A stretch of DNA of 64,000 bases from an uncultured Chloroflexia bacterium (GTDB lineage: Bacteria; Chloroflexota; Anaerolineae; CG2-30-64-16): contig CAWEMM010000009.1 of assembly GCA_963810095.1 (NCBI GenBank), forward strand, positions 64,001 through 128,000, given 5' to 3'. The position numbers and the translations under genes are program-made. Numbering within the stretch: position 1 is the first letter of the stretch; each line of letters starts with the position of its first letter. The notes below the pieces were generated by a model that was not told the DNA's origin, ran no database searches, and saw only the letters and a list, made by a program, of their open reading frames with translations. Shown here one piece after another: positions 29,921-54,869 of this stretch.

Positions 29921-30421
29921 ATGAAGATCATCCGACTGACCTTGCTGGTGGGGGTTGTCGCCGCGGTATTGGCGCTCGGGTTTGGGTCCGGGTTCGCGCG
30001 CGAGCCAAAGATCCTGGAGTTTGACAGCATGGTGGGGGTGCCGTCCACGCTGACAGGGGCTCAGAATCCGATTCGCGGCATCAACGGCGGTGGGCTGGCC
30101 TGGACACTCACCTCGGCCACCGGCGAACTGAAGCAGTCCGGTAAGCTGGAGATGGACGTGACGGGCCTCGTTTTCGCAGCAGGCCCCAACGTCGGCAAGA
30201 ACACGGTGACCAGTTTCAGGGCCATCGTGAGCTGCCTGGACGGCAGCGGTAACCCTGTCAACCGCATGACGAACGCGTTCCCCGCGACAACCGGCGCGGC
30301 GTCTGACGGGGGCGGGAATGCCAAGATTGAGGCCACGCTCGACCTGCCCACGCCGTGCATTGCGCCCATCATCTTCGTCACGAGCCCCGGCGGCGCCTGG
30401 TTCGCCGTAACCGGCCGGTAA
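29921..30421 (+). CDS. Secreted hypothetical protein
   Basis: AAGGAG RBS, signal peptide, IRGINGGGLAW, two Cys (IVSC, PCIAPIIFV). Confidence 0.75.
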   Translation: MKIIRLTLLVGVVAAVLALGFGSGFAREPKILEFDSMVGVPSTLTGAQNPIRGINGGGLAWTLTSATGELKQSGKLEMDVTGLVFAAGPNVGKNTVTSFRAIVSCLDGSGNPVNRMTNAFPATTGAASDGGGNAKIEATLDLPTPCIAPIIFVTSPGGAWFAVTGR

Positions 30422-30430
30422 ACACGCGAG

Positions 30431-30466
30431 GGAGCGGCGAGGGTCTCATCGACGCCTCGCCGCTCC
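30431..30466. terminator. Hairpin between convergent genes
   Basis: GGAGCGGCGAGG/CCTCGCCGCTCC 12-bp stem. Confidence 0.6.
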
Positions 30467-30495
30467 TTCTCATGGATCGACAGGCAAAGGACCGG

Positions 30496-31650
30496 CTAAT
30501 TGCCGTAGGCGCCAAATTCGCGCACGGCCTCCCACATTGCGACCAGGTTCTCAGCCGGGACGTTGCCCTGAATGTTGTGGACCGTGTTGAATACGAAGCC
30601 GCCACCCGGCTTGAAATCCTCCACCCGACGCTTCACCTCAACCCGGACTTCGTCGGGCGTGCCCGTGCCCAGCACGCGCTGCGTGTCGACGCCGCCGCCC
30701 CAGAATACGATGTCCTTGCCAAACTCGCGCTTCAACTCTGCCGAATCCATCCCTGCCGCGCTGACCTGGACGGGATTGATGATGTCCACGCCCACCTCGA
30801 TCAGGTCCGGGATCAATTGGCGGATCGCGCCGCAGGAATGCATGAACACCTTGGCGTTCGAGTGGCTATGGATGAAGTCGCAGAGTTGCTTATGGATCGG
30901 CTTCAGCAGGCGCCGGTAACTGCGCGGGGAGATGAGCAAGCCCTTTTGCCCCGCAATGTCGTCGGCAATCTGGGCCACGTCGATCACGTCGCCGACTTCG
31001 CCGAGCCCCTTCTCGAGATACTGTAACTGCATTTCCAGGACTCGATCCATCAGCTTGACGGCGAGCGGCGAGCTTGTACCCCAGTCGGCATAGGCGTCCT
31101 CGTACCCGCGCAGCCAGGTCAACAGCTCAAATACGCCTGCCGACATGTTGCCGAAGACGACCGCCCGCTGCTCCACGTCTCGGATGTGGAGCGCCAGGTC
31201 GCGCAGGCCGGCGAACCGTGACGGATCGAGCGGATCGGGCAGGGCGTAGCCGGCGAGCCGCTCCTCATCGATAGCCCCCTTGAGCGGGTGGTCGAACATG
31301 TCATAGTACCACCCACCGTCTTTTGGCGAGCGCCACCCGATGTTGAACTCGTCATAGAACGCGGTGTACTCGCCCAGGTCCCGCACCTCGATCTTGAACG
31401 CGGCCGACGACCGTGGCGAGATGTTCTTGACGTCGACGCCCAGGCAGTCCATGACGTCGTCTTCGACGAGCGCCAGTTGCTGGATCATGTCGATGATCTT
31501 CGGTTCACGGGCGGGGAGGCCCAGCGCAGCCCGCAAGTTAGCGTACGCCTTGTAGTGAATGCCGGTGACCACCGTCCCGCCCATGTCGAACGGCACCCGA
31601 TCCCCTTCCCGGTGATTGATTGCGGCCAGCACCCGCTCACGTGAATTCAT
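30496..31650 (-). CDS. URO-D/MtaA-fold protein
   Basis: MNSRERV..DRVPFDMG, DDIAGQ, MHSCG, INPVQ, FWGGGVDTQ, FNTVHNIQ. Confidence 0.9.
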   Translation of the reverse strand: MNSRERVLAAINHREGDRVPFDMGGTVVTGIHYKAYANLRAALGLPAREPKIIDMIQQLALVEDDVMDCLGVDVKNISPRSSAAFKIEVRDLGEYTAFYDEFNIGWRSPKDGGWYYDMFDHPLKGAIDEERLAGYALPDPLDPSRFAGLRDLALHIRDVEQRAVVFGNMSAGVFELLTWLRGYEDAYADWGTSSPLAVKLMDRVLEMQLQYLEKGLGEVGDVIDVAQIADDIAGQKGLLISPRSYRRLLKPIHKQLCDFIHSHSNAKVFMHSCGAIRQLIPDLIEVGVDIINPVQVSAAGMDSAELKREFGKDIVFWGGGVDTQRVLGTGTPDEVRVEVKRRVEDFKPGGGFVFNTVHNIQGNVPAENLVAMWEAVREFGAYGN

Positions 31651-31670
31651 ATTCGCCTCGACTAGAAGGA

Positions 31671-31723
31671 ATCCCCTCATCACCCACCCTCGCACAGACG
31701 ACGGGGATGGGTGATGAGGGGAT
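31671..31723. terminator. Long intercistronic hairpin downstream of the binding-protein gene
   Basis: ATCCCCTCATCACCCA/TGGGTGATGAGGGGAT 16-bp stem. Confidence 0.6.
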
Positions 31724-31734
31724 GAAACCGAGCC

Positions 31735-33780
31735 TTACTTGTGGTAGAAGAACTTCGCGTTGTCCTTGTTGATCACGATCGTGCCCGTGTCAACGGACTC
31801 CGGCATCGACGTGAGGCCGGCAGCCTTGTTGTCGGCAACAACCGGCACAGGTGCATGGTTCAGGTAGTACATGAACTTCGTGCCGAGGTAGCTCATCAGC
31901 GCGGTCTTCTGCGCCACCGAGCCCTGGATCACGCCGTCCTCGATGAACTTCAGCGTGCCATCGTCGCGGTCCATCGAGATGATCTTCAGCTTGCCGACGA
32001 GGTCGAGTTCCTTGGCGGCAGTCGCAGCGCCCACGCCACCCGCAGCTTCCACGCAGCCAACACCGGCGAGGTCAGGCACGCGCTGGAGCACGGCCTTCAG
32101 GCCGTCGGCGGCCTTCGTCGAATCGGACTGGTCGTCAATGATCTGCACCAGCTCGATGTCGGGGTAGTTCGCCGCAAATTCGTCCTTGTAGCCCTGGATG
32201 CGCTCTTCGAGGTTGCTCTGGCCCACCTTCGTGATCAGTGCAACCTTGCCCTTGCCGCCGATTTGCTCGGCCAGCAGCTTCGCACCCACATGGCCCGCAT
32301 TCTTGTTGCCCGTGCCCAGGAAGGTCAGGCGGTTGGAGCCGTAAACCTCGGCGTCCAGCGTGACGATCGGAATACCGGCCTCCGCAGCCTTGTCGATCGA
32401 AGGCTTAAGGGCCGGGTCGAAACCGACGACCAGGATGCCCGCGGGCTTCTCGGCGATGGTTTGCTCGAGCGTGTTGATCATCGCGGTCATATCGTACTCG
32501 GCAGGACCGACGAACTTCGTCTTGACGCCCAGCTCCTTGCCCGCGAACTCCAGGCCCAGGCGATGGTCGATGAAGTACGGCAGGTTGGTCAGCGCGAGGA
32601 CTTCGACGTAGGTCTCATCCGGCGAGGCCGTCGTCATGGGGACCTGGCTGAAGTCGTACGGGTTCTCGGTGTGATAGAACATCTTGGCGTTGTCTTTGTT
32701 GATCACCACAACGCCGGTGTCCACCGCCTCAGGCATCGGCAGCACGTTGGCGGCCTTGTTGTCAGAGACGATCGGGACAGGGTTGTTCTGGAGCCCGTCC
32801 ATCAGGAGCGTGCCGTAGAAGGTCATCAGCGCGCTCTTCTGCGCGACGGATGCGTCGATGACGCCGTCCTCGATGAACTTCAGCGTGCCGTCGTCGCGGT
32901 CCATGGACACGATCTTCAGCTTGCCGTTCAGGCCAAGTTCCTTCGCGGCCGTGGCAGCGCCTACGCCGCCCGCGGCTTCCACGCAGCCCACACCCGCCAG
33001 GTCCGGCTCGCGCTGGAGCACGGCCTTCAGGGCATCCGCGGCCTTGGTGGAATCGCTCTGGTCGTCGATGACCTGGACCAGCTCCACGTCCGGGTAATTC
33101 TGGGCCAGCTCATCCTTGTAGCCCTGGATGCGCTCTTCGAGGTTGCTCTGCCCCACCTTGGTGATGACCGCAACCTTGCCCTTGCCACCGATCAGGTCGG
33201 CTAGCAGCTTGCCGCCCACCCGGCCCGCGTTGTAGTTGCCGGTGCCCAGGAACGTCATGCGCTTGGACCCGTACACCTCCGCATCCAGCGTGACGACCGG
33301 GAAGCCGGCGTCGACCAGCTTGTCGATCGAGGGCTTGAGCGCGGGGTCGAAGCCAATGACGTTGATGCCGGCGGGATTTTCGGCCGCGGCCTGCTCCATC
33401 GTGTTGATCATGGCCGTCATGTCGTACTCGACGGGGCCGACAAACTTGGTCTTGGCGTTCAGGGTCTTGCCTGCGAACTCCAGGCCGACGCGGTGGTCGA
33501 TGAAGTACGGCAGGTTGGTGAGGGCCAGCGCCTCGACGTAGGTCTTCTCGCCCGCAGCCGGAGCGGCCTCGGGGGCGGCCGCAGCCGGTTCCTTGGTGGG
33601 CTCGGCAGCAGCCGGAACCGCAGTGGCCTCAGCCACCGGCGCCTTGGTCGGCTCAGCAGCCGCTGCGGGCGCCTTGGTAGGTTCGGGGGCCGCCGGGGCG
33701 GGGGTGGCCTGTCCGGCGCACCCTACGAGCGTGACCAGGATGGTCACGAGGCACAGAAGTGCCAACAGTCGCCGTTGCAT
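31735..33780 (-). CDS. Sugar ABC substrate-binding lipoprotein with two tandem RbsB-like domains
   Basis: Lipobox LVGC, Ala/Pro/Glu linker, two near-identical domains offset by 930 nt (TYVE.LALTNLPYFIDHR..). Confidence 0.9.
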   Translation of the reverse strand: MQRRLLALLCLVTILVTLVGCAGQATPAPAAPEPTKAPAAAAEPTKAPVAEATAVPAAAEPTKEPAAAAPEAAPAAGEKTYVEALALTNLPYFIDHRVGLEFAGKTLNAKTKFVGPVEYDMTAMINTMEQAAAENPAGINVIGFDPALKPSIDKLVDAGFPVVTLDAEVYGSKRMTFLGTGNYNAGRVGGKLLADLIGGKGKVAVITKVGQSNLEERIQGYKDELAQNYPDVELVQVIDDQSDSTKAADALKAVLQREPDLAGVGCVEAAGGVGAATAAKELGLNGKLKIVSMDRDDGTLKFIEDGVIDASVAQKSALMTFYGTLLMDGLQNNPVPIVSDNKAANVLPMPEAVDTGVVVINKDNAKMFYHTENPYDFSQVPMTTASPDETYVEVLALTNLPYFIDHRLGLEFAGKELGVKTKFVGPAEYDMTAMINTLEQTIAEKPAGILVVGFDPALKPSIDKAAEAGIPIVTLDAEVYGSNRLTFLGTGNKNAGHVGAKLLAEQIGGKGKVALITKVGQSNLEERIQGYKDEFAANYPDIELVQIIDDQSDSTKAADGLKAVLQRVPDLAGVGCVEAAGGVGAATAAKELDLVGKLKIISMDRDDGTLKFIEDGVIQGSVAQKTALMSYLGTKFMYYLNHAPVPVVADNKAAGLTSMPESVDTGTIVINKDNAKFFYHK

Positions 33781-33851
33781 GTGAGACTCCTCCTAGTGTG
33801 TGGTTGGTTGGCTGGATAAGGGCGGGCTGCCCCGTCCCTTCAGGAAAAGCG

Positions 33852-34850
33852 CTACTTGCTGCTGCCGCGGCGCCGGTTCAGGGCGTCGACGGCAACGGTC
33901 AGGATCAGGACGCCGCCGGTAACGATCGTCTGCCAGTACGGATTAATGCCCAGCAGGTTCAGACCGTTGAGGATGAGCGCCATCAGGATGACGCCGAGCA
34001 GCGAGCCGATGACCGAACCTTCCCCGCCCGACAGGCTGGCGCCGCCGATGACACAGGCGGCAATGACCTGCAATTCGACCGCGTTGCCGGCCGAGACCGA
34101 CGCGGTGCCCATGCGGGCCGTCAGGAGCAGGCCGGTCAGGGCCGCCAGCAGGCCCATCAGGATGTAGTTGAGGATCTTGACGCGGTCGACGTTGATGCCC
34201 GAGAGCCGCGCACTTCGCTCGTTGCCGCCGATGAAGTAACTTTGGCGGAAGAAGCGCCAGCGGCGCAGCAGAATCTCGCCGACGATCACGATCACGATCA
34301 TGATGTAGATGGGGTACTGCAGCGTGAACAGCTTCCCCTGTGCGATCTTGTTGAACGCGTCCGGCAGGTTCGGGATACCGAGGCCGCCGGTCAGCAGGAA
34401 GACGACGCCGCGCGCCACCTGCTGAATGCCGAGCGTCGCGATCAGCGGGTTGACACCCACCTTGGCGATGATCAAGCCATTGACGAGGCCCACGGTCGCG
34501 CCCGCCCCCAGCCCGAGGAGGATTGCCATCGGAGGGGACGCGCCCCACTTCATCATCGCCGTGCCTGCGACCGCGCCGGCCAGGGCCAGCGTCGCGCCGA
34601 TGGACAGGTCGAAGCCACCCGAGATCAGCAGGACAGTCATGCCGACCGCCGCAATCGCGTTGAACGACATGCCCAGGAAGAGGGCGGTCATGTTCGCTTG
34701 GTTGAGGAAGTTGGGCGACGCAATCTTCAGGCCTGCCATTACCACCAGCACGACCAGAAAAATGCTCAGCTCACGTTGCTCGAGCAGGCGCCGCCATATG
34801 CTGGTCCGAGGCGCGGTCGTCGCGCCTTCCTTCCTTGCTGTCATGCTCAT
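33852..34850 (-). CDS. Sugar ABC permease (RbsC-like)
   Basis: GGFDLSIG, IGGNERSARLSGI, ELQVIAACVIGGASLSGGEG; ATGA overlap with the ATPase stop. Confidence 0.92.
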   Translation of the reverse strand: MSMTARKEGATTAPRTSIWRRLLEQRELSIFLVVLVVMAGLKIASPNFLNQANMTALFLGMSFNAIAAVGMTVLLISGGFDLSIGATLALAGAVAGTAMMKWGASPPMAILLGLGAGATVGLVNGLIIAKVGVNPLIATLGIQQVARGVVFLLTGGLGIPNLPDAFNKIAQGKLFTLQYPIYIMIVIVIVGEILLRRWRFFRQSYFIGGNERSARLSGINVDRVKILNYILMGLLAALTGLLLTARMGTASVSAGNAVELQVIAACVIGGASLSGGEGSVIGSLLGVILMALILNGLNLLGINPYWQTIVTGGVLILTVAVDALNRRRGSSK

Positions 34851-36418
34851 GCTGTCTTCTCCTCCAAGGGCGCGACCGGTTCTGCCTGGTTGACTTGCTT
34901 GGGACCGGTGACGCCGGCGGCCAGGGCCATGACCTGTTCTTCTGTCGCACCGGGACCGGGGATAATGCCTACCAGCCTGCCTTCGCGCATCACTGCGATG
35001 CGATCGCTCACGCGTAGTGCTTCGGGAAGGTCCGATGAGATCACCATGACGGCCTTGCCCTGTGCAGCCAGCTCGCGCAACAGGCGGTGGATCTCTTGCT
35101 TCGTGCCTACGTCGATGCCGCGCGTCGGTTCGTCGACGATCAAAATCCTCGGGTTGCGGGCGAGCCATTCGCCAAGAAATACCTTCTGCTGGTTGCCGCC
35201 CGATAGGTTTCGCAGCTTCTGCTTTACACTGGGTGTGCGCACGTCGAGCTGCGCGACATACTGGCTCGTGAGCTTCGTCAGCATCGGCCACCGAAGCCAG
35301 CCGCCGGGCGAGACCTGTTCCAGGTTGGGCGCGAGGAAGTTTTCCGTGATGCTCTTGTCGAGGAACAGCCCTTCGTTCTTGCGGTCTTCAGACAGGTATG
35401 CCATGCCCGCCTTCATCGCGGCGCTGGGCCGGCGGACGTGCATATCGACCATCTCACCCTTACCGGCCAGCTTGACACTGCCCGTTGCGCCGCTATCCAG
35501 GCCGACGAGGGCCCGCGCGACTTCGGTTCGTCCGGCGCCGACCAGGCCAAAGAAGGTCAAGACCTCGCCTTGATGCAGCGTGAAGCTGATATCTTCAAAG
35601 GCGCCGGGCCGCGAGAAGTTTTCGACCCGCATCGCCTCGGCCCCCGCTTCGACCACGGCCGCCCGATCCGCGTCCAGGTCCAGCTCGCGCCCCACCATCA
35701 TGCTCACGATCTGGTGCTCCGTCAGTTTCGCCGTCGGCTGAACGCCGACGAGCTTGCCGTCGCGCAGCACTGCCGTGCGGTCCGATATGGCGAGGACTTC
35801 TTCGAGGTGGTGGGAAACATATACGATGGCAAGGCCCTGCTCGCGAAGCTGCTTCAGTCGTTCAAAGAGGCGGGCGGCTTCCTGCAAGGTCAGCGAAGAA
35901 GTGGGCTCGTCCAGCACCAGTACCTTTGCGTTGCGGGCCAGCGCCTTCACGATTTCGACCATCTGCTGGTTGCCCATCGAGAGCTTGCCCACCTGCATGT
36001 TCGGGCGGAAGTCTACGCCGAACAGATCGAGCAGCTGCTGGGTCTGGGCGTACATTGAGCGTTGGTCGATGAGCCCCAACGGCCCGAGCGGCTGGCTGTT
36101 AGCGTATACGTTCTCTGCAACGGTGAGGTTCGGCACAAGGCTGAGTTCCTGGAAGACCACGCTGATGCCGGCTTGCTCGGCTTCCTGCGTGCTGCCGAAA
36201 CTGACCGGCTGGTCGCCCAAGTAGAGCTGCCCTTCATCCGATTGGTAAGCGCCTGCGAGGATGTGAATGAGTGTGGATTTGCCCGCGCCGTTTTCGCCGA
36301 CCAGGGCCAGGATCTCGCCGGCCCGGGCATCCAGCGTGACGTTGGACAGCGCCTGGACGCCGGGGAAGGCCTTGGAGATACCTTCGACGCGTAGGAGAGA
36401 TGAAGTTGATGAATCCAT
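34847..36418 (-). CDS. Sugar ABC ATP-binding protein (RbsA-like)
   Basis: GENGAGKST, LDEPT, LSGGNQQKV, DEPTRGIDVG. Confidence 0.93.
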   Translation of the reverse strand: MDSSTSSLLRVEGISKAFPGVQALSNVTLDARAGEILALVGENGAGKSTLIHILAGAYQSDEGQLYLGDQPVSFGSTQEAEQAGISVVFQELSLVPNLTVAENVYANSQPLGPLGLIDQRSMYAQTQQLLDLFGVDFRPNMQVGKLSMGNQQMVEIVKALARNAKVLVLDEPTSSLTLQEAARLFERLKQLREQGLAIVYVSHHLEEVLAISDRTAVLRDGKLVGVQPTAKLTEHQIVSMMVGRELDLDADRAAVVEAGAEAMRVENFSRPGAFEDISFTLHQGEVLTFFGLVGAGRTEVARALVGLDSGATGSVKLAGKGEMVDMHVRRPSAAMKAGMAYLSEDRKNEGLFLDKSITENFLAPNLEQVSPGGWLRWPMLTKLTSQYVAQLDVRTPSVKQKLRNLSGGNQQKVFLGEWLARNPRILIVDEPTRGIDVGTKQEIHRLLRELAAQGKAVMVISSDLPEALRVSDRIAVMREGRLVGIIPGPGATEEQVMALAAGVTGPKQVNQAEPVAPLEEKTA

Positions 36419-36467
36419 GCCTTCCGCCTTTATAACCGTCATCGGCGCGGAATCGGCCAATCCGGCG

Positions 36468-36860
36468 TTATTCGCCTGCCGGGTCGAACCCCGCGTCTCT
36501 GAGGGCAGCGACAAAGTCGTCGTAGTGCAGATCGGGTTTTTGCAGGTAAGCCGCGCAATCAGGCGCGAGGGCCGCGGCATCCGACCGGGTCAGCCACGAG
36601 CATGAGATCACGGGTACGCCCGCCGCGCCGTTCTGCGCCTTGAGCACTTGCGCAGCCTGCCAGCCGCGGTGCTCGCCGGGCAACTCGACGTCCAGGATGA
36701 TCAGATCGGGATGGCATTCGGCGGCCAGGGCCTCCAGTTCTTCGCCCACCTGTGCCCGCACGGCGGAGAGGCCGCACCCTTCGCAAAACCGCGTGAGGAG
36801 CCGGGCCAGAAAGGTGTCAGACTCGCCGATGAGGCAGATGGGCGGCGTGGACGGTGCCAT
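36468..36860 (-). CDS. Stand-alone response regulator receiver protein (atypical)
   Basis: PDLIILDVELPG and LQKP retained; acidic pocket reads GESD. Confidence 0.75.
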   Translation of the reverse strand: MAPSTPPICLIGESDTFLARLLTRFCEGCGLSAVRAQVGEELEALAAECHPDLIILDVELPGEHRGWQAAQVLKAQNGAAGVPVISCSWLTRSDAAALAPDCAAYLQKPDLHYDDFVAALRDAGFDPAGE

Positions 36861-36881
36861 ACTCCCATTTCACCACGCCGG

Positions 36882-39800
36882 TCACCCGCTGTCTCGCACC
36901 ATTGGAACCGCTCTCTCGGAGAATTGGAACCTGCGCTTCCGGTACTCGCTCGGTGAGAGCCCGGTCTCCTTCTGAAAGACCCGGCCGAAGTAGCTGCTGT
37001 CTGAGAAGCCGCAGGCCAGTGCGATTTCGGTCACGCTGAGCTGACCGCGCTCGAGGAGGGCTGCAGCCTGCTGGACGCGGTAGCGGTTGAGGTAGGCGAC
37101 CGGCGAGAGCCCGGTCTCCTGGCCGAAGCAGCGGGTGAGGTAGCGCTCGCTGACCGCCAGGCGGCCGGCCAGTTCCTCCCGCGAGATCGACTCGGCGTAG
37201 TGCTCGTGGATGTAGGCCATGGCCATGCGCGCGATCCGCTGCGCCTCACTGCCCAGGCGCTTGCCCCGCGGCCCAGCGCATCTGCAATCTGGCCGAGCAC
37301 CTCGTCCTGGGTGAACACGCCCTTGTTGAGCACGGCCGCGACGCCCTTCTGCAGCCTTTCCATCTCCTGCCGGCCGAGCACCTGCGCGGTGAGGACGATG
37401 ACCGGCACGTCGCGGAGTCCGGGCATGCCCCGCATGGCCTCGAGCACGCCGAATCCGTCGAGTTCGGGCATCATCAGGTCGAGGAGCACGAGGTCGGGCA
37501 CGGCCTGCTCCATCGCGGCCAGCGCGGCCCGGCCGTCGGCCGCAGTGGTCACGTGCGCAGCCGGCAGCGCGGCCGTGGCCATGCGCGCATGCAGGTGGCG
37601 CACAGCCGGATCGTCGTCGACGACGAGGATTTCGTGGCGGGCGCCGTCCGCGCGCGTCATGCCCTGCCGCGCCAGCGCCGCGGCCAGCAGTTCGCCGCCC
37701 AAAGGCTTGGCGACATAATCGAGGTTCAGCACGGCCCCGCAGTCGCCCTCACACAGCGAATAGAATAGCACCGGGATGTCGCTGGTGGCCGGGTTCAGCT
37801 TGAGCACATGGACGAGGTCCCAGGCGTTCTCGGCCGCCGCCCCGTAGTCCAGTACAATCGCACCCGGCGGGCTCGCCGCGACCCCGGCCAGCCAATCTCC
37901 GCCCGGCTCGGCCGGCAGCGCCACCACTTTGAAGCCCTTGGCGGCGAGGAACGCGTGCAACTGCTGCGAGCCGCCCGTGTCCTCGGCCAGGAGCAGGACG
38001 GCATCGCTCCGGTCGGGCAGTTGGGCCGGCGACGCGGCTTCCTGGGCCAGCACCGGGAGCGTGAAATAGAAGGTCGAGCCCGCGCCATCCGTCCCGGTCG
38101 ACAGCACGCCGATGCGGCCGCCATGCAGCTCGACCAGCCGCTTGCTGATCGCCAGCCCCAGCCCCATGCCGCCGAAGCCGCGGCGAGACACCCGGTCCGA
38201 CTGGCGGAATTCGTCGAAAATCAGCTCCTGCTCGCCCGCGGCGATGCCCATGCCCGTGTCGCTGACCGCGACCATGACTTCCTGGCGGCCGGTCTCCACC
38301 CAAAGCGAGACGCAGCCCTTGCTCGTGAACTTCACGGCGTTGCCGAGGAGGTTCAGCACGACCTGCTGCAGCCGCGTCCGGTCGCCCCACACCAGGGGCA
38401 GCCGCTCGCCGAAGTCAACCCGCCACGCCAGCCCGCGCTCGCGTGCCATCTGCTCGCCCAGCACGGCCACGGACCCGAGCACCTGCCCCAGTCGCACCGG
38501 CTCGCAGACCAGGCGGAGTTCGCCGGCCTGGCTGCGGGCGAGGTCGAGCACGTCGCTGATCAGGTGAGACAGGTGGCGGGCGCTCATGTGGATCGATTCG
38601 AGGTCGTGCTGGAAGGACTCGGGCAGCCCGGTTAGCGGCTCGCGCTGTACCATCTCGATCGTTCCTGCAATCAGGCTCAGCGGCGTGCGCAGCTCGTGGC
38701 TGACGGTGGACAGGAACTTGCTTTTGAGCAAGTTGGCTTCCTCGGCCCGCCGCCATGCTTCCCGCACCTCCTCACGCAGGAAAAGCCCTTCCAACGCCGC
38801 GCTGACTTGCTCGCGGAGCGTTTCGCCCAGGGCCAGCGCGCGGGCATCGGCCTGCAGGAGCATGTAGCCCAGCTGCTTTTCGCCGAAGCAGAGCGGCAGG
38901 ACGACCAGGTCGGGGGGCCGGCGGCCCGCGAGGCGCGGCGGCAGCAGATCCCGGCTGGCGAAGAGCGGCTCGGACGCAAGGTCGATCCGGCCGGCCGCAT
39001 CGAATGCCAGCACCAGTTGGCCCGCGCCGGTGGGCTGCTCCGCATCGTGGTAGAGCACCAGGTAGCATGCATCGACGCCGAAGGGCGGCAGTTCTGCGGC
39101 GATGAGGTCGTAGAGCGCTTGCCGGTTGGCTGCGCCCTGGATGTGTTGGCTGAAATCGCCCAGGCGATGTGTGTCTTCGTCAGCGTGGAAACGCTGGTAA
39201 CTCCGCGCCTGCGCCGCGGTCTCGCCGATCAGGACGCGCGCCTGCTGCCACAGGTCTTCGGCTACGGAGCGCGCGGGCTCGACCAGGCGGGGCAGCATCT
39301 GGCGCCGCATCAACGAAAGCGCTTCGTGCCATTGCCGCACGTCCCGGCTCCCATACTGGCCCAGGGCGGCGGCCTGAAGCGTGCCGTTGAGCCCCGCCAG
39401 GAACCGCTCGGCATCCCGGCCTGCCAGGACGGCCCGGAACTCGTCGACCAGGGCGGCCATCGCCGCTTCGGGAAGACCGGTCACGCCTGCCATGGCCGCG
39501 GGGAGGTTGAGTGTGCGGGCCGCCGCGGGCGCGGTGCCTCGGGCGGCGGCTGAGGTCACCGCGGGCGACAGGCAGCCGCACGAGCGGCGAATGACCAGGT
39601 CGAGCGGGAGCGTCGCGACCTCGGCCGGGGGCCGGCCCGAAAACAGGTCGAGCAGCGCGGCGACCGCGGCCCGCCCCATCTCGACGACGGGCTGGCTGAC
39701 CGTCGTCAGGGCAGGCAGGATCGCTCGGCCCTCTTCGTCGTCGTTGAAGCCGGTCACCGCGACGTCGTCGGGGATGCGGACCCCGCGTGCGCGCAGCGCC

Positions 39801-40477
39801 TCGATCGCGCCACAAGCCATGTCGTCACCCACCGAGAGCAGCGCGTCGAAGTCGATGCCCGCAACCAGCCCGCGCTCGTCGAGCAGTTCGGCAATCTTTT
39901 GGGGCCCGTCCAGCCGCACCCAGTTGGTGCGGGACGAGACGAGGGCCGGCTCGAACGGGATCGCGTTATCGGCGAGGACGTCGCAGTACGCGCGGAAGCG
40001 GAGCTCTTCTTCTTCGGCGCCCTCCGGCCCCCGCAGAAATGCGATCTTGCGCCGGCCGTGTTCGCGGAGGAGATGCTCGGCTGCCAGGCGCATCCCCTGG
40101 TAGTTGTCGACAAGGATGCCGGGGATACCCGAGAAGGCACGGCCGACGGTCACCACGGGCACGGAGGTGAAACGGCGGCAGAATGCCTCCATTTGCCCAG
40201 GCCGCAACTCCCAGTCGAGCGCGCTGGCCCAAATGATCAGGCCGTCCACGTTGCGCGGCCCGGCCAGGTCGTACAGCACGTTCGCCGGGCTCTCCCGCGA
40301 ACTCGTGGGCGCGAGCACGCCCCCGTCGAAACAGACAAAGTCTGCCCCGGCCGCCAGCACCGCAGCCCGCACGCTTAAGAGCGACGCGCGATGAAAGCCC
40401 CGGCCGAGTTGGGACTCGAACAGGCCGATGACGGGGCGTGATTTCGACGGTTGAGAGGCGGACACGAGGATACGCAA
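36882..40477 (-). CDS. Hybrid sensor: LacI-type ligand-binding domain, histidine kinase, two REC domains and AraC HTH (frameshift near 37270)
   Basis: VDNYQG, IPDDVAVTGFND, LTTVSQP; SHELRTPL, NAVKFT, DTGMG, GMGLGL; VDDD..DLMMP; CGFSDSSYFGRVF. Confidence 0.88.
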
Positions 40478-40639
40478 CTCCGCATGGATCCGATGGTGCA
40501 GCCCGATGATACCTTATGTCACTAAAAGAAGGAAGCTGCGAGACCGGTGGCACCCCGGAGACCCGCCAGGTTGCCCCACTTCACCAGGGGCGCAACCTGA
40601 CAGGTCTGTCCGCAAGATGCGAGCGCGCTTGCAGCGGTC

Positions 40640-41818
40640 TCACCCAGGCAGCCGGCTCCGCAGGTAGTCGTACGCCGCCCGACGCCCCGACCGCAGATCA
40701 CGATTGATCGCGTCGTACTTCCCGCCCTTCAGGAGCCCGACGACGGGCGAAAACTGCGAACAGATGACGATGCCGCGGCGGTCGAGCGAAGCGAGCATCT
40801 CGTCGAAGTACGCGGCGTACTCGACCGGCGTGAAGTCGCACACGAACAGCACGACTTTGTCCTGCAGCTTCTGCTGCAGCTCGCAGACTGAGGGGATGTT
40901 GTACAGGTTGTAGATGTTCAGCGCCTTGAGCCCCTTGGTCGCGAGGAAGTTGTCGGCGTGGCGGGTGGCGTTGCCACAGTAGTGGATGCAGCCGCCGCCA
41001 AACGCTTCCAGGATGCGCGAGTTGTACGGTACGACGAACTCGCGATACGTCCGGGTAGACATGAGCACCGCGTCATCGTCGGAGAACCAGACGCCCGCGT
41101 GCTTTCCGGTGTAGACCTGCTGGTCGCCGATGCATTCCGTCAGCGGCTCGCCGGTGACCTCCTTCTGCTTCTTCACCCACATGATGAGCGTCTCGGTGAC
41201 TTTATCCATCAGCTCGTGCATGACGTTCGGGTGGTCGTACATCAGGTAGATGAGCTTGTCATAACCCATCAGCTGATTGGCGGTGGTCAGCGGGCCCTGG
41301 AAATCTGTGATTCCGACCGGGAGGAAGCTGTTGGCCTTCATGTACCCCAGAGTCTTCAGCACGTCGGGCATGAGGCCTGCGGTTTCCGGGTCGGGCATCT
41401 CGAGCCGGTGCACGTCCTCGACGGTCTGGACGGGGTAGTAACGGGGATTGGCGGCCGGGTCCATCTTGGGCTGGAACTCGATCTGGCAGCCCAGCGCCGA
41501 GGCGGCCACGACCGTGCCGAACCAGGGCATCAGGTAGGGCACGAAGTCGTCGTCGATTTCCTTGACCTGGTCGTAATACGTGCGCTCCTGGTAGGCCGTC
41601 ATGACCGCGGGGTCGGTCACGTAGTCGTCGGGCAGGGTCTCCGGATCGAGGCCGAAGATCCAGTACAACGCGCTGTTTACCATGAAGGGGGGCGCCTTGA
41701 CGTCGCGGAACGCGAAGACGTCGTCGGTTTTCGCGGCGACCTTGGCCAGCCGGCTATCGAACCGGCGGCGAAAGTCGGCACGCTCGGCTTGGGACAAGGG
41801 TTCAGTCGTCCACGCCAT
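40640..41818 (-). CDS. Divergent URO-D/MtaA-fold protein
   Basis: GGAGG RBS; TDFQGPLTTA, SDDDAVLMS, IHYCG. Confidence 0.75.
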   Translation of the reverse strand: MAWTTEPLSQAERADFRRRFDSRLAKVAAKTDDVFAFRDVKAPPFMVNSALYWIFGLDPETLPDDYVTDPAVMTAYQERTYYDQVKEIDDDFVPYLMPWFGTVVAASALGCQIEFQPKMDPAANPRYYPVQTVEDVHRLEMPDPETAGLMPDVLKTLGYMKANSFLPVGITDFQGPLTTANQLMGYDKLIYLMYDHPNVMHELMDKVTETLIMWVKKQKEVTGEPLTECIGDQQVYTGKHAGVWFSDDDAVLMSTRTYREFVVPYNSRILEAFGGGCIHYCGNATRHADNFLATKGLKALNIYNLYNIPSVCELQQKLQDKVVLFVCDFTPVEYAAYFDEMLASLDRRGIVICSQFSPVVGLLKGGKYDAINRDLRSGRRAAYDYLRSRLPG

Positions 41819-41837
41819 GAGGGACCTCCGGTTTGGG

Positions 41838-42867
41838 TCAGTATTGCCCGTACTTGCGCGCCGATTCGACGAGCGCGTGGATGTTTTCGGCAGGTGTTTC
41901 GGAAGGCAGCGCACAGCCCGGCCCGAGAATGAAGCCGCTGCCCGGCGCCATGATCGCAAGCGCCTCCCGACACGCGTCCTCGACCTCCGCCGGCGTCTCC
42001 GACGACCAGGGTCGACGTGTTGATCGGTCCCAGGAAGCAGGTTTGGCCCCTGCCGGCAGCCTTTGCTTTCACCAGGTCGGTCTTGTGGTCGATCTCCAGG
42101 ACCTGCGCGCCGGTCGCAATGAAGTCATTCAGGATGGGAACCGTGTTGCCGCAGATGTGGTTGTGCAGGATGATCCCGTGCGCCTTGAGCTCGGCGGCCA
42201 TCCGCTGCTCTTGGGGCTGTGCGTAGCGGCGGTAGTGCCTGGGCGACATCACGTCGGGCCCGGCGACCGGCTCGCCGATGGAGGTTGACCGGGCGCCGCT
42301 TTCGATCAGCGCATACGCATAGCGGGTCGCCACCTCGCGCGCATAATCGAGCAGGCAGTCGACGAGCTGCGCCTTTTCCCCCAGGGCGATCTCCAGCATC
42401 AGCGGCTCCATGCCGAAGAGCTGGCTGGCAAGGTCCATGGGCCCCTGGTCCGCCCGTCCGCAGATCCACACCTCGTCGCCGATCTCCTTCGCCAGGATGC
42501 GGGTCGCCTTGATGATCTCGCACATGGGGAAGGCCGTGTACGGATCGGGCACGGTGAGCGTGTCGACGTCCTCCAAGCGGGTGAGCACGGGGATATGCGC
42601 CGCGGGCGCGGCGTCGTCGCGATAGATCACCTGGACGCCGCATGCCTGTGCGCTGCACGCGGTGCCGTTTTCCAGCAGGATCATGTCGTGGCCGAACTCG
42701 CGCCACGCCCTAAGCATCGCCTCGGCGAGCAACTCGCCGTCCTGGAACACCTCGGCCATGGAGATGCCCATTGCCGCGGCCGCGGGCTGGAAGTTGTGCA
42801 GGTCGACCGGGACCCGGTCCGGCGTTCGCAGGTCAATGGCTGCTTGCACGCGCTCGATTGAGTTCAT
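41838..42867 (-). CDS. MtaA/CmuA-type corrinoid methyltransferase, URO-D fold (frameshift near 42000)
   Basis: PDRVPV, QGPMDLA, HNHICG and (other frame) FILGPGCAL: the H-x-C..C Zn motif. Confidence 0.8.
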
Positions 42868-42897
42868 AAACCGTCTCCTCGTCGAGCCGTCTGCTCG

Positions 42898-43554
42898 CTA
42901 GGCGGCGCCGACCAATCCCCTGGCCAGACGCACTGCAGAGGACGCGTCCGGGCTGTAGCCGTCGGCCCCAATCTGCCTGGCAAAGCTGTCGGTCACGGGG
43001 GCTCCGCCGATCATCACTTTGACCTGGTCCCGGAGCCCGGCTTCCTGCAATGCCTTGACCGTGGCGGTCATCGAGGGCATGGTGGTGGTGAGCAGGGCAG
43101 ACATGCCGATGACGAGTGGGCGGCCGCCCGCTTGGGGCTTGTGCTCCTGCACGGCTTTTACGAACTTCTCGGGGGTGACGTCCGTGCCCAGATCGACCAC
43201 TTCGAACCCGGCGCCCTCCAGCATCATCGCAACGAGATTCTTGCCGATGTCGTGCAGGTCGCCCTTCACGGTGCCTACCACGACCTTGCCCACCGACACC
43301 GAGCCCCCTTCCGCGAGCGCGGGCTTCAGCAGGGCGAGGCCGGCCTGCATCGCACGGGCGGAAACCAGCATTTCCGGAACAAAGTACTCGTTCTCCTCGA
43401 ACAGCCGCCCAACCTCACCCATTGCGGCGATCAGCCCATCTTTGAGAATGGTCTCCGCAGGGATGCCCGCGGCCATGGCGTCACGCACGCCCGCTTGCGT
43501 CCCCTTGGCGTCCCCTTCAAGCACGGCATGAAAAACGGCCTCAAGTGGTTCCAT
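42898..43554 (-). CDS. Corrinoid (B12-binding) methyl-carrier protein
   Basis: EYFVPEML cap domain; GTVKGDLHDIGKN (DxHxxG), MSALLTTTM, VMIGGAP. Confidence 0.93.
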   Translation of the reverse strand: MEPLEAVFHAVLEGDAKGTQAGVRDAMAAGIPAETILKDGLIAAMGEVGRLFEENEYFVPEMLVSARAMQAGLALLKPALAEGGSVSVGKVVVGTVKGDLHDIGKNLVAMMLEGAGFEVVDLGTDVTPEKFVKAVQEHKPQAGGRPLVIGMSALLTTTMPSMTATVKALQEAGLRDQVKVMIGGAPVTDSFARQIGADGYSPDASSAVRLARGLVGAA

Positions 43555-44634
43555 TGTCTTGCCTCCTATGAGATTTTGGCGTAGTCGATCGTCGCGCACC
43601 GGCGCCTGCTAGGAAGCCGGTTGCACGGTGGGGTGGGGCTGTGGAAGCCCGCACCACCAGGCTGGTGGGAATTTCAACATGGCGGATCGGCTCGGTCCGA
43701 TCGAGCAGGTCGATCAGCATGCGCGTCGCAGTGGCGGCGATGTCGTAGATGGGCTGGCACACGGTTGTCAGCGGGGGCCAGATTTGACCTGCGAGGGCAA
43801 CATCGTCGAACCCCGCCACCGATAGCTCGCCCGGGATGGTCAACCCGGCTTCATGTGCCCGGGCACACACGCCTGCCGCCATTTCGTCGTTGTTGCAGAA
43901 GACGGCGGTCGGCATGGGGTTCATCCGGAAGAACGAGCCGGCGGCTTCGCGGCCGCTTTCGAAGTGATCGTCGCCGTGGCGCACCAAGGTCAGGTCGAAG
44001 GCGACCCCCGCGGCGGCCAACGCGTCACGATAGCCTGCCAGCCGGTCATGCGCAGCCCGCTGCTCGAGTGGCCCGACAACGAAGCCAATGCGTCTGTGGC
44101 CGAGTCCAAGCAAGTGCTCCGTCATCTCACGCGCGCCACAGCCGGTCGGTTGCGGCAACGTACGGGGCAGTGCTCTCGCGCTCGCAAGGCGTCAGACGTA
44201 CAAAGGGGATGCCCATGCCGGCGAGTGCTTCGAACAGTGCCGTCGCGTTGTCGACCGGGGGCGTGCTGATGAAGCCGTCGACCTGGCGTTGGGAAGCGAG
44301 TTGGATGATTTCCAACGCGTCGGCGGCCCGAGCAGCATCGCACGGATGCAGCAGCGTGCTGTAGCCCGCAGCACGCGCAGCCTCCAGCACGCCTCGCTGT
44401 ACGTCTTGAGTATAGAGCCAGCTTGCATTGTGAAAGAGAAGGCCGATTGTGAAGGCGTGTCCCTTGGCGAGCCGTTTCGCATGGAAATTGGTAACGAACC
44501 CTAACTGCTCAATGGCAGCTAGCACTTTTGCGCGCGTCTCTTCGCGCACGTACGGCTCGTCGTTGAGGACAGCGCGAGACCGTCTTAATTGAGAGACCCG
44601 AGGCGAGAGCAACGTCGCGGATGGTGGCGGACAT
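43541..44634 (-). CDS. LacI family repressor (frameshifts near 44571 and 44145)
   Basis: MSATIRDVALASGLSIKTVSR-VLN HTH; GHRRIGF, NDEMAAG, SVAGFDD, PPLTTVCQP. Confidence 0.88.
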
Positions 44635-44767
44635 GGCCTCTTTCACTCTCACGGGGTTGCCGGCAGAGCACCGGACACCGGCGTCTGGCTCAGCGATCCC
44701 CGATGGGGAATCCCTTCTCCATCAGGCATAAGGCCGGCCGGGGCGGTCTGATACCGTTGTCATGCGC

Positions 44768-44796
44768 AGGTTATCACACTCTGACAGCGCTGTCAA
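44768..44796 (-). promoter_or_regulatory. Sigma70 promoter overlapped by a LacI-type operator
   Basis: Minus strand TTGACA (44796-44791), 17 bp spacer, extended -10 TG-A-TAACCT (44773-44768); perfect palindrome TGACAGCGCTGTCA at 44782-44795. Confidence 0.75.
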
Positions 44797-45076
44797 TAGG
44801 GTTGACGCGTAATCCACGCGAGACTCAAAGTGGAAGCTGTGCAAGCGGCAGTGCGGTGTCCGTGTACTCCAGGCGGGGCAGTGACTCGGCCGCGGCGAAG
44901 TTGAGAGCCCGGCTTCGCCTGACCTGAAAAATTGGACGAATGTTCTAATACCCTTTGCCTCGTCGTAGGCTTCGTGTTATGATGCGATGTGTGCGCGGGC
45001 GAAGCCCGGCTCCCCGCGATTCTGAACGCCGCTCCATGCCGGCGCGCTCGGGCAGGCAAAGAAGGAGGGTGACGAT

Positions 45077-45904
45077 GTGAAGAATAGGACGCCAACCATC
45101 ATCATCACCGGCGCATCGCAGGGTCTTGGCGCTGCCATGGCCTCGATTGCAGCCGCGCACGGTGCGCAGGTTGTCCTGGCCGCGCGTTCGGAGGCCGGCC
45201 TGGCCGCGCAGCAGCAGAGGATACAGGAGCGCGGGGGCAGCGCGCTTGCGGTGGTGGCCGATGTCACGAAAGCAGAGGATTGCCGGCGGATCGTCGACCA
45301 GTCGCTGCAGAGGTACGGGGAGATCGACGCGCTCGTCAACAACGCGGCAACGATCGAGCCGCTTGCCGCCGTGGCCGACGTGCGCCTGGAGGATTGGCTC
45401 CGTCAGATGGCGGTGAACGTGTTTGGACCGCTGACGCTAAGCCAGTTCGCCATACCTCACCTGAGGCAGACCCACGGCAGGATCGTCAACGTGACCAGCC
45501 ACGGCGCCGACAACGTGATCCCGGGCGCCTCCGCATACAGCGCCTCGAAGGCCGCACTGAACCGCTTATCAAAGACGCTGGCCGCGGAAGAGCCGGAGAT
45601 TCCCGTGCTCCTCTTCGTTCCCGGCGAGGTCGACACGCCGATGCAGGCCGTCATCCGCGACAAGGGCAAAGGCAAGACGCCCGACGACGTCTACCAGTTC
45701 TTCCTCGATCAGTATGAGCAGGGCCGCTTGCTGCCGGCCGACACGCCGGCGTTGGCCGGGGTCGCGCTGGCGCTGGCCGCGCCCCGGGACTGGAGCGGAG
45801 AGATCCTGCAGTGGGATGACGAGCGGGTGCAAGCCCTCGTACGATCGTTCCAGGCGTCCCTGCCAGGCGCGGCATCCGGCCCCGCGCCCCACGTCGAGGG
45901 CTAG
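45077..45904 (+). CDS. Short-chain dehydrogenase/reductase
   Basis: TGASQGLG, LVNNA, YSASK, PGEVDTPMQ. Confidence 0.9.
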   Translation: MKNRTPTIIITGASQGLGAAMASIAAAHGAQVVLAARSEAGLAAQQQRIQERGGSALAVVADVTKAEDCRRIVDQSLQRYGEIDALVNNAATIEPLAAVADVRLEDWLRQMAVNVFGPLTLSQFAIPHLRQTHGRIVNVTSHGADNVIPGASAYSASKAALNRLSKTLAAEEPEIPVLLFVPGEVDTPMQAVIRDKGKGKTPDDVYQFFLDQYEQGRLLPADTPALAGVALALAAPRDWSGEILQWDDERVQALVRSFQASLPGAASGPAPHVEG

Positions 45905-49263: not shown

Positions 49264-50586
49264 CTAAAACAGCAGCAAATCGGGCGCTTCGAGGGCCTGG
49301 ACGAGCTCTGACAGGAACCTGGCGGCCACAATCCCGTCGATCACACGATGATCGGCAGAGAGCGTGAGCGACAGCATCGGGCGCACCTCGACACGGTCCT
49401 GCGCGTCCACCACAACCGGGCGGCGCACGATACTGCCCACGGCAAGGATCGCGCTTTCGGGCGGGTTGATCACCGCCCGAAACTGCGGGATGCCCAGCAT
49501 GCCCAGGTTCGAGATGGTGAAGGTGCCGCCCTGCACGTCGTCCAGTTTCAGCGCGTTGCGCCGTGCCCGGTCCGCCATCGCGCCGAGCCGCACGTTAATC
49601 TCGTTGATACCGAGCTGGTCCGCGTCTTTGAGCACCGGCACGACCAAACCCTGCGGTGCGGCTGCTGCAACGCCGATATTGATGTTCTTCCACAGTGAGA
49701 TCGAGTCGCCGGAGAATGACGAATTGAGATAGGGGTGGCGACGCAGCGCCCACCCGACGATCTTGATGATCACCGCCGTCATCGTAATCTTCGGCTGCTG
49801 CAGTTTCTCCGCATGCACGTTCAGACGCTTTCGGGCAGCTTCGGCTTCAGTCATATCTACTTCGACCGTCAGCGCGATGTGCGGCGACTCCTGGAAGCTC
49901 TGCTGCATCCGCTGCGCAATCGTCCGCCGAATGCCGCTGAGGGGGATGACCTCTGCTTCCCGGCCCTTCGTGGGAGGCGGGGCGACAGGCGCGGGCGCCC
50001 GTTCCGGTTCCACCGGCAGCTCCGGCACGGCCAGGGCCTGCGCTGCCGTCTCTACATCGGCGGCCACGACCCGCCCGCGCGGGCCCGACCCGGCCACGGC
50101 TTCCAGGTTGACGCCGCTTTCGCGCGCCACCCGGCGGGCTGATGGCGTTGCGGGAACCGTCACGCGCCCCTCCCCGCCATGCTCGGCGAGATACTTCTCG
50201 ACATCCTCGCGTGTGATCTTGTTGCCCGCTGCCGAGACCTTTGAAAGGTCGACGCCCTCTTCTTTCGCGATCCGGGCGGCGATAGGTGTGGCTGCCGGCA
50301 GGACTAGGGCGGTGACGGCGGATGGCTGCACGGGCGCGGGTGTCTCGCCCTCCTTCATGATCTGGGCGATCACGGTCGTCACCGGGACCACATCGCCGTC
50401 CTTGTAGCGGATGCCGGTGAGGATGCCGGTCGCAGGGGCGGGCACATCGATGGCGACCTTGTCAGTCTCGACGACCAACACGGTTTCCTCGAACTTGACG
50501 AAATCGCCTTCTTTTTTGGACCACGACACGATCGTCGCCTGTTCCTGGTCCATGTCGAACTTGGGCATGATGAACGGGACTGGCAT
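49264..50586 (-). CDS. Dihydrolipoamide acyltransferase (E2)
   Basis: Lipoyl VETDKV, two E3-binding repeats (ATP.A.R), GGTFTISNLG, DHRVIDG. Confidence 0.93.
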   Translation of the reverse strand: MPVPFIMPKFDMDQEQATIVSWSKKEGDFVKFEETVLVVETDKVAIDVPAPATGILTGIRYKDGDVVPVTTVIAQIMKEGETPAPVQPSAVTALVLPAATPIAARIAKEEGVDLSKVSAAGNKITREDVEKYLAEHGGEGRVTVPATPSARRVARESGVNLEAVAGSGPRGRVVAADVETAAQALAVPELPVEPERAPAPVAPPPTKGREAEVIPLSGIRRTIAQRMQQSFQESPHIALTVEVDMTEAEAARKRLNVHAEKLQQPKITMTAVIIKIVGWALRRHPYLNSSFSGDSISLWKNINIGVAAAAPQGLVVPVLKDADQLGINEINVRLGAMADRARRNALKLDDVQGGTFTISNLGMLGIPQFRAVINPPESAILAVGSIVRRPVVVDAQDRVEVRPMLSLTLSADHRVIDGIVAARFLSELVQALEAPDLLLF

Positions 50587-50587
50587 G

Positions 50588-52620: not shown

Positions 52621-52632
52621 AGCTCGCCTCAC

Positions 52633-54758: not shown

Positions 54759-54777
54759 CGTGGTGCTCCTAAGGTAC

Positions 54778-54869
54778 GGCTGCAACGAATTGAACGAATA
54801 TCCACGAACTCATTCGAAGACGGATCCCAATTCGTCCAATTTGTCGAATTCGTGAAATTCGTGGCAGCC
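54778..54869. repeat. AT-rich intergenic palindrome built of ACGAAT/ATTCGT units
   Basis: GGCTGCAACGAATTGAACGAATATCCACGAA ... TTCGTCCAATTTGTCGAATTCGTGAAATTCGTGGCAGCC. Confidence 0.65.

Follow-up and report, generated by a model that had tools for sequence, protein, structure and literature searches.

A corrinoid protein, URO-D-fold enzymes and a sugar ABC importer in one locus of an uncultured Chloroflexota bacterium: a candidate system for demethylation of a methylated sugar

In the MtaB-MtaC-MtaA system of Methanosarcina, a zinc-dependent methyltransferase on the substrate side (MT1) is combined with a corrinoid protein and a second zinc-dependent methyltransferase (MT2). A comparable set of proteins is encoded in a stretch of 64,000 nucleotides (hereafter the window) that belongs to the genome of an uncultured soil or sediment bacterium of the Chloroflexota, class Anaerolineae, available as 6.13 Mb in 16 contigs, with 65% G+C and a completeness of 88.5% by marker genes. 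Analysis of the open reading frames (ORFs) and profile searches revealed a locus of ten genes, all on the minus strand, which runs from position 44634 down to position 30496 with intergenic gaps of 0-160 bases and is flanked by genes on the opposite strand. The co-oriented run of LacI repressor, corrinoid protein, MtaA-like protein, URO-D protein, hybrid sensor, REC protein, CUT2 transporter and URO-D protein described in a previous, sequence-only reading of this DNA was present in its entirety and tightly spaced, although its upper limit, given as 44796, has to be moved to 44634, where the LacI gene starts. Judged from gene content and gene neighbourhoods, a functional link of the CUT2 importer, the corrinoid protein and the enzymes of URO-D/MtaA fold appears well supported, and we consider it moderately probable that the locus serves to import a methylated sugar, which would then lose its O-methyl group in a corrinoid-dependent reaction.

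The locus resembles the Methanosarcina system in having an MtaA-like enzyme that can be aligned over the full length of MtaA with its zinc ligands, and a corrinoid protein with the same domains and the same DxHxxG motif. It differs in its candidate MT1 enzymes, which are of URO-D fold rather than MtaB-like, in its bacterial host, whose genome yielded no ComA, and in its association with a sugar ABC importer. A URO-D-superfamily MT1 enzyme working with a cognate corrinoid protein is also the arrangement of the Odm/Vdm systems of Acetobacterium, MtoABCD of Methermicoccus and CdmBCA, according to the available parts of PMC8630106 and PMC13222342, in which these systems are described as having ATP-dependent activation of the RamA type. 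Their MT2 is a pterin-binding enzyme of the same cluster, and they act on aryl methyl ethers or chloromethane. RamA-like genes exist in the present genome too. Unlike those clusters, the locus contains neither a pterin-binding gene nor an activase; it encodes an MtaA-like enzyme instead, in a context of sugar import and sensing. The type 1 mlp clusters of Kountz and Balskus (PMC10418091, available parts) likewise combine bacterial MtaA-like proteins, which have a His-Cys-Cys site, with their cognate corrinoid proteins. Those clusters, in contrast to the locus described here, were proposed to act in methyl-sulfur or methyl-selenide metabolism, and a term search for 'ABC transporter' gave no result in the text of PMC10418091 that was available.

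A search of the literature, with subscription journals and supplements outside its scope, returned no corrinoid-dependent demethylation of sugars or cyclitols. Methyl ethers on the sugars of plant, algal and microbial polysaccharides, such as 2-O-methyl-fucose, 2-O-methyl-xylose, 3-O- and 6-O-methyl-galactose and 4-O-methyl-glucuronate, block ordinary catabolism. The only sugar demethylase that surfaced in that search was the P450 6-O-methyl-D-galactose demethylase of marine bacteria (PMC6292453, available parts), with which the system proposed here would have in common that removal of the methyl ether lets sugar catabolism proceed. That enzyme belongs to an unrelated protein family and involves no corrinoid. 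It is reportedly an oxygen-dependent monooxygenase that releases formaldehyde. In comparison with the methanol and O-demethylase systems, the locus differs in the pairing of a candidate MT1 of URO-D fold with an MtaA-like enzyme in the place of a pterin-binding MT2, in the location of the activase outside the locus, and in the coupling to a sugar importer and sugar-sensing regulators.

Proteins of the locus

The corrinoid (B12-binding) protein is encoded by a 233-residue ORF at positions 42898..43599 (minus strand), within which the Met codon at 43554 is the likely start. Both the cap domain (PF02607, E-value 1.8e-22) and the Rossmann B12-binding domain (PF02310, 8e-29) are present, and the score against the TIGR02370 model, 191.9 bits, is under the curated cut-off of 215.3. 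The DxHxxG motif, already pointed out from the sequence, was invariant (G113-D114-x-H116-x-x-G119) in 15 of 15 aligned corrinoid proteins.

The gene for the MtaA-like methyltransferase of URO-D fold (41838..42867, minus strand; PF01208, 7e-43) matched MtaA of PDB entry 4ay7 at 3.6e-20. An intact orthologue of 342 residues could be aligned over its full length to this M. mazei protein (6.9e-24), with the zinc-ligand motifs HICGN and PGC of the orthologue facing HICGN and PGC of the structure. The same two motifs, with the His-x-Cys and Cys zinc ligands, were found in the pieces into which the window copy is divided, in agreement with the H-x-C..C pattern noticed earlier. The N-terminal piece of 292 residues alone scored 120.3 bits against TIGR01463, whose cut-off is 235.4.

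Two further proteins of this fold are encoded on the minus strand, UROD2 (40640..41818, 392 residues; PF01208, 3.4e-21) and UROD3 (30496..31695, likely start at the Met codon at 31650; PF01208, 3.5e-25). None of the three URO-D proteins is a HemE by score, since they reach 23-44 bits against the HemE model TIGR01464 with its cut-off of 303. In UROD2, the residues H279-x-C281 and S246-D-D-D249 were invariant in 8 of 8 aligned rows, and Cys352 was kept in the six close rows, the two distant ones having Ala at this position. The AlphaFold2 model of this protein (predicted local distance difference test, pLDDT, 84.7; predicted template modelling score, pTM, 0.87) found M. mazei MtaA (4ay8/4ay7) as its best Foldseek match, with template modelling (TM) scores of 0.62-0.71, followed by HemE and, weakly, MetE. 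In Protein Atlas, its matches came from Spirochaetota, Lentisphaerota, Planctomycetota and Chloroflexota and bore nothing more specific than generic URO-D names. For UROD3, the residues H286, H373 and N374 were invariant, residue 288 was Cys in 9 of 16 rows and Asp in the other 7, and comparison with PDB gave weak matches to MtaA and CdmB.

In this superfamily, the His-Cys-Cys site is that of the S-methyltransferases, whereas the O-methyltransferases have carboxylates or non-ligands in place of Cys (PMC10418091, available parts); in addition, the veratrole and vanillate O-demethylases contain zinc and CdmB does not (PMC13222342, available parts). On the basis of these zinc-site rules, UROD2 and UROD3 can be read as acting on the substrate side, on a methyl group bound to oxygen, and the MtaA-like protein as acting on the thiol side, UROD2 being a candidate substrate:corrinoid methyltransferase. 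Structure prediction gave weak support to a complex of the corrinoid protein with UROD2, with a score of 0.39 as compared with 0.00 for the best of three controls, agreement between runs in at least 86% of the contacts and a partner pLDDT of at least 88. Of 80 solved complexes, 58 reached the mark set for this score, as did 2 of 110 mismatched pairs, and scores that reach the mark but do not exceed 0.60 were obtained for only 7 of the 80 solved complexes, plus both of the mismatches that passed.

The CUT2 importer consists of an ATPase with two ABC domains (34847..36442; PF00005 in two stretches), a permease of 332 residues (33852..34850; PF02653, BPD_transp_2, 1.4e-38) and a lipoprotein substrate-binding protein of 681 residues (31735..33780), all encoded on the minus strand. 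The ATPase was AraG/RbsA/XylG-like with 490-524 bits, values under the respective cut-offs, and no substrate-specific equivalog cut-off was reached by the importer; the permease was AraH/RbsC-like and displayed multiple hydrophobic segments in a hydropathy scan. At its N-terminus, the binding protein carries a hydrophobic stretch closed by the residues LVGC, a lipoprotein signal. The presence of a binding protein had been recognized previously; what had gone unnoticed is that it is a tandem duplicate with two Peripla_BP_4 domains (PF13407, 7.7e-95 in two stretches) whose halves are 80% identical to each other. The halves were 77-83% identical in all seven proteins compared (the window protein and those of L035, L039, L041, L043, L052 and L068), and N halves and C halves formed separate groups with a support of 95/100, which indicates that the duplication is old and has been kept. 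Each half was nearest to monosaccharide binders, namely 3g1w (4.7e-53), the arabinose-binding 6sw4, Thermotoga sugar binders and 2h3h. The best NCBIfam matches were to rhizopine, rhamnose and allose binding proteins, all of them far under the cut-offs.

Sugar-binding domains were identified by Pfam in both regulators of the locus, the LacI-family repressor (43541..44634, minus strand), with LacI helix-turn-helix (HTH), Peripla_BP_1 and Peripla_BP_3 matches on its pieces, and the hybrid sensor kinase (36882..40477, minus strand), in which a LacI-type sugar-binding domain matching Peripla_BP_3 is followed by HisKA, HATPase_c, REC and AraC HTH domains. The kinase is predicted to be cytoplasmic, as the hydropathy scan gave no clear membrane segment and the sensor is a LacI-type binding domain and not a periplasmic one. 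The sequence-only reading had correctly proposed a hybrid sensor at this place, but its description lacked the AraC HTH (36882-37265), which matches the NCBIfam RhaS/AraC models and lies on the same polypeptide as HisKA, HATPase and REC in two orthologues (L026 and L036), the window copy being frameshifted. A single-domain response regulator of 130 residues (36468..36860, minus strand; NCBIfam response-regulator models) completes the gene set, and its homologue was found in 6 of 38 orthologous loci. A scan of positions 30000-45200 for promoters and terminators yielded one promoter-like and four terminator-like sites, a result not above that of shuffled sequences. The ten public sequencing runs listed for this stretch included none of RNA.

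Gene neighbourhoods in relatives and within the genome

UROD2 proved to be a good synteny anchor, being present in 3 of 41 relatives and in 10 of 401 genomes of the class. The corrinoid protein failed as an anchor, with paralogues of about 80% identity occurring in unrelated contexts. A scan of one genome per species retrieved 78 loci of the UROD2 family from Chloroflexota, Acidobacteriota, Spirochaetota, Clostridia and other groups, and these were divided into 38 loci with a UROD2 of at least 55% identity (close loci) and 40 more distant, UROD2-like ones. Neighbours were counted as tblastn matches of at least 60 bits within up to 10 kb of UROD2, and the counts are lower bounds because many loci end at contig ends. 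A corrinoid protein was found in 14 of the 38 close and 16 of the 40 distant loci, in the latter often encoded directly downstream of the UROD2-like gene. UROD3-like genes (22/38 close, 20/40 distant), the CUT2 ATPase (20/38 and 23/40) and the binding protein (16/38 and 12/40) were also recurrent in both sets, and an MtaA-like gene was detected in 15 close loci and in a single distant one. The duplicated binding protein (at least 60% identity), the MtaA-like protein (at least 65%) and a corrinoid protein occurred together in 7 of the 38 close loci (L040, L043, L050, L051, L055, L061 and L068), whose gene orders differ from one another and from that of the window. These data indicate that the gene content is conserved across the Chloroflexota relatives while its order is shuffled.

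The corrinoid protein itself shared approximately 75-83% identity with paralogues that lie in unrelated contexts in relatives (L013-L025) and only approximately 56-65% with those of the orthologous loci (L036-L068), with the exception of L036 at 79%, and its gene may have been exchanged between contexts.

A COG0523/CobW-type GTPase was encoded near UROD2 in 9 of the 38 close and 1 of the 40 distant loci, and in relatives its gene lies between UROD2 and the UROD3-like gene (L029:10381-11451 and L032:7404-8456). This position would fit zinc enzymes. In the present genome, no such GTPase was detected with the query from the relatives at a level of 90 bits or more.

With regard to the substrate, genes for SDR sugar dehydrogenases, a metallo-beta-lactamase-fold protein, GH31 and a galactokinase were seen in related loci, and three of five enolase-family neighbours passed the galactonate dehydratase cut-off (358-371 bits vs 311). 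These galactonate dehydratases hint weakly at a galactose-type sugar. An AP_endonuc_2 protein adjoined two orthologues and is not specific. The substrate had been proposed before as a sugar or a cyclitol; the cyclitol, at which the sub-threshold match of the binding protein to the rhizopine model (160 bits vs a cut-off of 420) hints weakly, was set aside, and the related loci point to the catabolism of galactose-type sugars instead.

The same design is repeated elsewhere in the genome, which contains 44 URO-D matches, 12 corrinoid-protein matches and at least 20 UROD3 paralogues. When three second pieces of genes already listed were removed from the 44, 17 of the remaining 41 URO-D pieces had a CUT2 permease homologue no more than 10 kb away, whereas such neighbourhoods make up about 6.5% of the sequence of this genome. 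Three other clusters, on contig C16, at about 1.22 Mb of C6 and at about 0.44 Mb of C12, pair URO-D genes with a corrinoid protein and a CUT2 permease. With the shuffled recurrence in relatives, the three repeat clusters and this enrichment, the link of importer, corrinoid protein and URO-D enzymes contained in the earlier proposal of a demethylation system held up, while the methylated ligand and the transfer of the methyl group are what we infer from it.

The paralogous cluster at C16:8208-19741, on a contig of 21 kb, combines a CUT2 ATPase and permease with a hybrid kinase, a corrinoid protein and three URO-D genes, one of which is UROD2-like (43% identical); frameshifts split several of the genes in this cluster.

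Partner functions were also found outside the window. Three RamA-like activases are encoded in the genome, as are pterin-binding proteins at three loci, with four matches in all, of which two fall at a single locus on C12; a genome search for RamA-like activators and a tetrahydrofolate methyltransferase had been suggested in the sequence-only reading. A Wood-Ljungdahl-type cluster at C6:918651-938367 encodes acetyl-CoA synthase and MTHFR together with a RamA/RACo-like and a pterin-binding protein. The same genome also has three genes for heme-copper oxidase subunit I, on C6/C13, and these show that the organism can respire oxygen as well. At C6:61902-67239, a homocysteine S-methyltransferase gene has genes for a corrinoid protein, a RamA-like activase and a pterin-binding protein as neighbours, and the group resembles a methionine synthase whose parts are encoded separately, or else a shared methyl-group hub.

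Proposed pathway and competing explanations

The substrate class, the direction of methyl transfer and the role of each enzyme in the following scheme are those that we infer from the above data. The two-domain lipoprotein and the CUT2 transporter would import a monosaccharide-like compound, and the cytoplasmic sensor kinase with its sugar-binding domain, together with LacI, would control expression. UROD2 and UROD3, with zinc-type sites made up of His-Cys plus harder ligands, would act as substrate-specific MT1 enzymes that methylate Co(I) of the corrinoid protein with the O-methyl group of the sugar. The MtaA-like enzyme, with its His-Cys-Cys site, would then move the methyl group from methyl-Co(III) to a thiol acceptor; alternatively, unloading might be carried out by the pterin-binding or homocysteine methyltransferases encoded elsewhere. 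Co(I) would be restored by the RamA-like activases, also encoded elsewhere, the methyl group could enter the folate pool and the Wood-Ljungdahl pathway, and the demethylated sugar would go on to ordinary catabolism. Coenzyme M was considered as methyl acceptor and set aside, no ComA having been found in a genome that is incomplete.

Beyond this locus, it is quite possible, and we advance it tentatively, that a B12 relay of this kind strips sugar methyl ethers without oxygen in many soil and sediment degraders, acting here on a substrate of the O-methyl-galactose type. Such a relay would extend over anaerobic or facultative sugar degraders of the Chloroflexota, Clostridia, Spirochaetota and possibly Acidobacteriota. 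The expanded URO-D family might then represent one demethylase per methylated sugar, and the methyl group would pass to a thiol through the MtaA-like enzyme or into the folate/Wood-Ljungdahl pool, a form of methylotrophy on sugar methyls. If true, an oxygen-free corrinoid route would fill a gap in anaerobic polysaccharide degradation, and a function would be at hand for an extensive branch of the URO-D superfamily that lacks annotation and is represented by 44 matches in the present genome alone. Sugar use in abundant uncultured Chloroflexota would be tied to B12 demand and one-carbon metabolism, and the enzymes could serve as demethylation catalysts that work without oxygen. The binding protein, the corrinoid protein and the three enzymes of the locus make up a defined set on which the proposal could be tested directly.

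Several observations weigh against O-demethylation of an imported methylated sugar. The binding protein resembles binders of unmethylated sugars, and no catabolic gene that would name the sugar is located within the locus. No curated NCBIfam cut-off was reached by any of the three URO-D proteins. As the sequence-only reading had stated, there was no match to a RamA-like activase (PF14574) or to a pterin-binding protein (PF00809) in the window, so the locus itself lacks both functions; no ComA was found in the 88.5% complete genome either. Alkyl methyl ethers are, moreover, harder leaving groups than the aryl ethers of the known O-demethylases. Finally, 24 of the 38 orthologous loci, many of them cut by contig ends, had no corrinoid protein within 10 kb, and 11 UROD2 loci of the Acidobacteriota type (L053, L054, L056-L060, L069, L071, L072 and L107) had no corrinoid protein, MtaA-like gene or CUT2 transporter in the surrounding DNA that was available, from which it follows that UROD2 may not need a corrinoid protein.

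The last point is also the starting point of an alternative in which the URO-D proteins are corrinoid-independent zinc enzymes of sugar metabolism, either alkyl transferases resembling MetE or decarboxylases, and the corrinoid protein is a mobile neighbour. The Acidobacteriota orthologues of UROD2 that lack a corrinoid protein adjoin GH3, GH78, enolase-family and xylose-isomerase-like genes, the URO-D matches in the genome far outnumber those of corrinoid proteins (44 vs only 12), the corrinoid protein of the window is closer to paralogues elsewhere (about 80% identity) than to those of the orthologous loci (about 60%), and the UROD2 model has a weak match to MetE. We nevertheless hold this explanation to be unlikely, given that 30 of the 78 UROD2-family loci do have a corrinoid protein within 10 kb, often immediately downstream in the distant members, and that the MtaA-like partner matches a methylcobamide methyltransferase along its entire length; the predicted complex of UROD2 with the corrinoid protein, with its margin over the controls, lends weak support in the same direction.

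A second alternative retains the corrinoid chemistry and changes the substrate, the locus being an aromatic O-demethylase for lignin-derived methoxylated aromatics or methoxylated phenolic glycosides, comparable to the Odm/Vdm/Mto systems of acetogens, and the importer one for the glycoside or merely an adjacent transporter. Aryl methyl ethers and chloromethane are indeed the substrates of the known MT1 enzymes of the URO-D superfamily (PMC13222342 and PMC8630106, available parts), UROD3 has its weak match to CdmB, and the genome encodes a Wood-Ljungdahl cluster. An accidental neighbourhood of the importer is, however, difficult to reconcile with the CUT2 genes and the duplicated binding protein accompanying the enzymes through shuffled gene orders, and the sugar-binding domains of both regulators, as well as the sugar-catabolic genes among the neighbours in related loci, argue against an aromatic substrate, which we regard as improbable.

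Methyl sulfides are demethylated by MtsA and MtpA, and the methyl donor might likewise be a methylthio compound such as 5-methylthioribose, with the MtaA-like protein as the demethylase and the other URO-D proteins serving further substrates. This protein retains all three His-Cys-Cys ligands, the transporter is of the monosaccharide type, and the available parts of PMC10418091 connect the site with S-methyltransferases and the bacterial MtaA-like clusters with methyl-sulfur/methyl-selenium metabolism. On the other hand, the full His-Cys-Cys site is absent from two of the three URO-D proteins, and the related loci hold galactonate dehydratase, sugar dehydrogenases and glycoside hydrolases and not methionine-salvage genes, so that we give this possibility little credit.

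Frameshifts and neighbouring genes of the window

Three-frame translation revealed four frameshifts in the locus, two in the LacI gene, one in the MtaA-like gene and one at the REC/AraC junction of the kinase. The LacI gene reads across three frames and yields a protein of 363 residues once the extra bases at 44571 and 44138 are ignored. In the MtaA-like gene, the last 52 C-terminal residues lie in another frame, and ignoring the extra base at 42005 gives 342 residues; without the extra bases, the spans including the stop codon are 343 codons for the MtaA-like gene and 364 for LacI. The frameshift between kinase and AraC parts is situated near 37265. Both parts are in one frame in the same-genus orthologue (L026) and form a single ORF of 1234 residues in L036.

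Near-identical contigs from public runs were aligned to positions 36800-44800 at a likeness of at least 90%. One base fewer was found at 42005 in two runs, with one contig each, at 44138 in one contig of 481 bases with three other differences, and at 44571 in one contig. These contigs were shallow in depth and came from runs that cover only small shares of the stretch, and they are consequently taken as near relatives and not as the same cells. Among the contigs aligned to that range, no insertion or deletion (indel) was seen at the site near 37265, where the case for a single frame rests on the orthologues. The three extra bases confirmed in this way are all A on the plus strand.

Essential genes of the same genome were broken in a similar way, with rpoC split over frames 2,0,1,2,1,2 and the final piece of rpoB in a different frame (contig C14:146935-155374), which indicates that the assembly contains many single-base indels. 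Completeness by marker genes, moreover, is only 88.5% in spite of a contig number as low as 16. Together with the public contigs and with MtaA-like orthologues that are unbroken across 342 codons, this argues that the frameshifts of the locus are assembly errors and that its genes are probably intact. A decaying pseudogene cluster, which four frameshifts within 14 kb could suggest, is highly improbable and was rejected, considering that the essential rpoB and rpoC are frameshifted too, that the extra base is absent from public contigs at three of the four sites and that the fourth site is in frame in orthologues.

A second CUT2 cluster is located at positions 53607-61260 of the window (minus strand), where an ABC ATPase is encoded alongside two BPD_transp_2 permeases and one URO-D protein. 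Its CUT2 binding protein spans two overlapping frames (60116-60658 and 60514-61260), and its URO-D protein (53607-54809) displays an H-N-D motif; the cluster includes no corrinoid protein. At the beginning of the window (1-2921, plus strand), a URO-D gene truncated by the window start (1-672) is followed by the gene for an 822-residue DUF5703_N protein. Genes for the E1 alpha, E1 beta and E2 components of a 2-oxoacid dehydrogenase complex occupy positions 49264-52632 on the minus strand.

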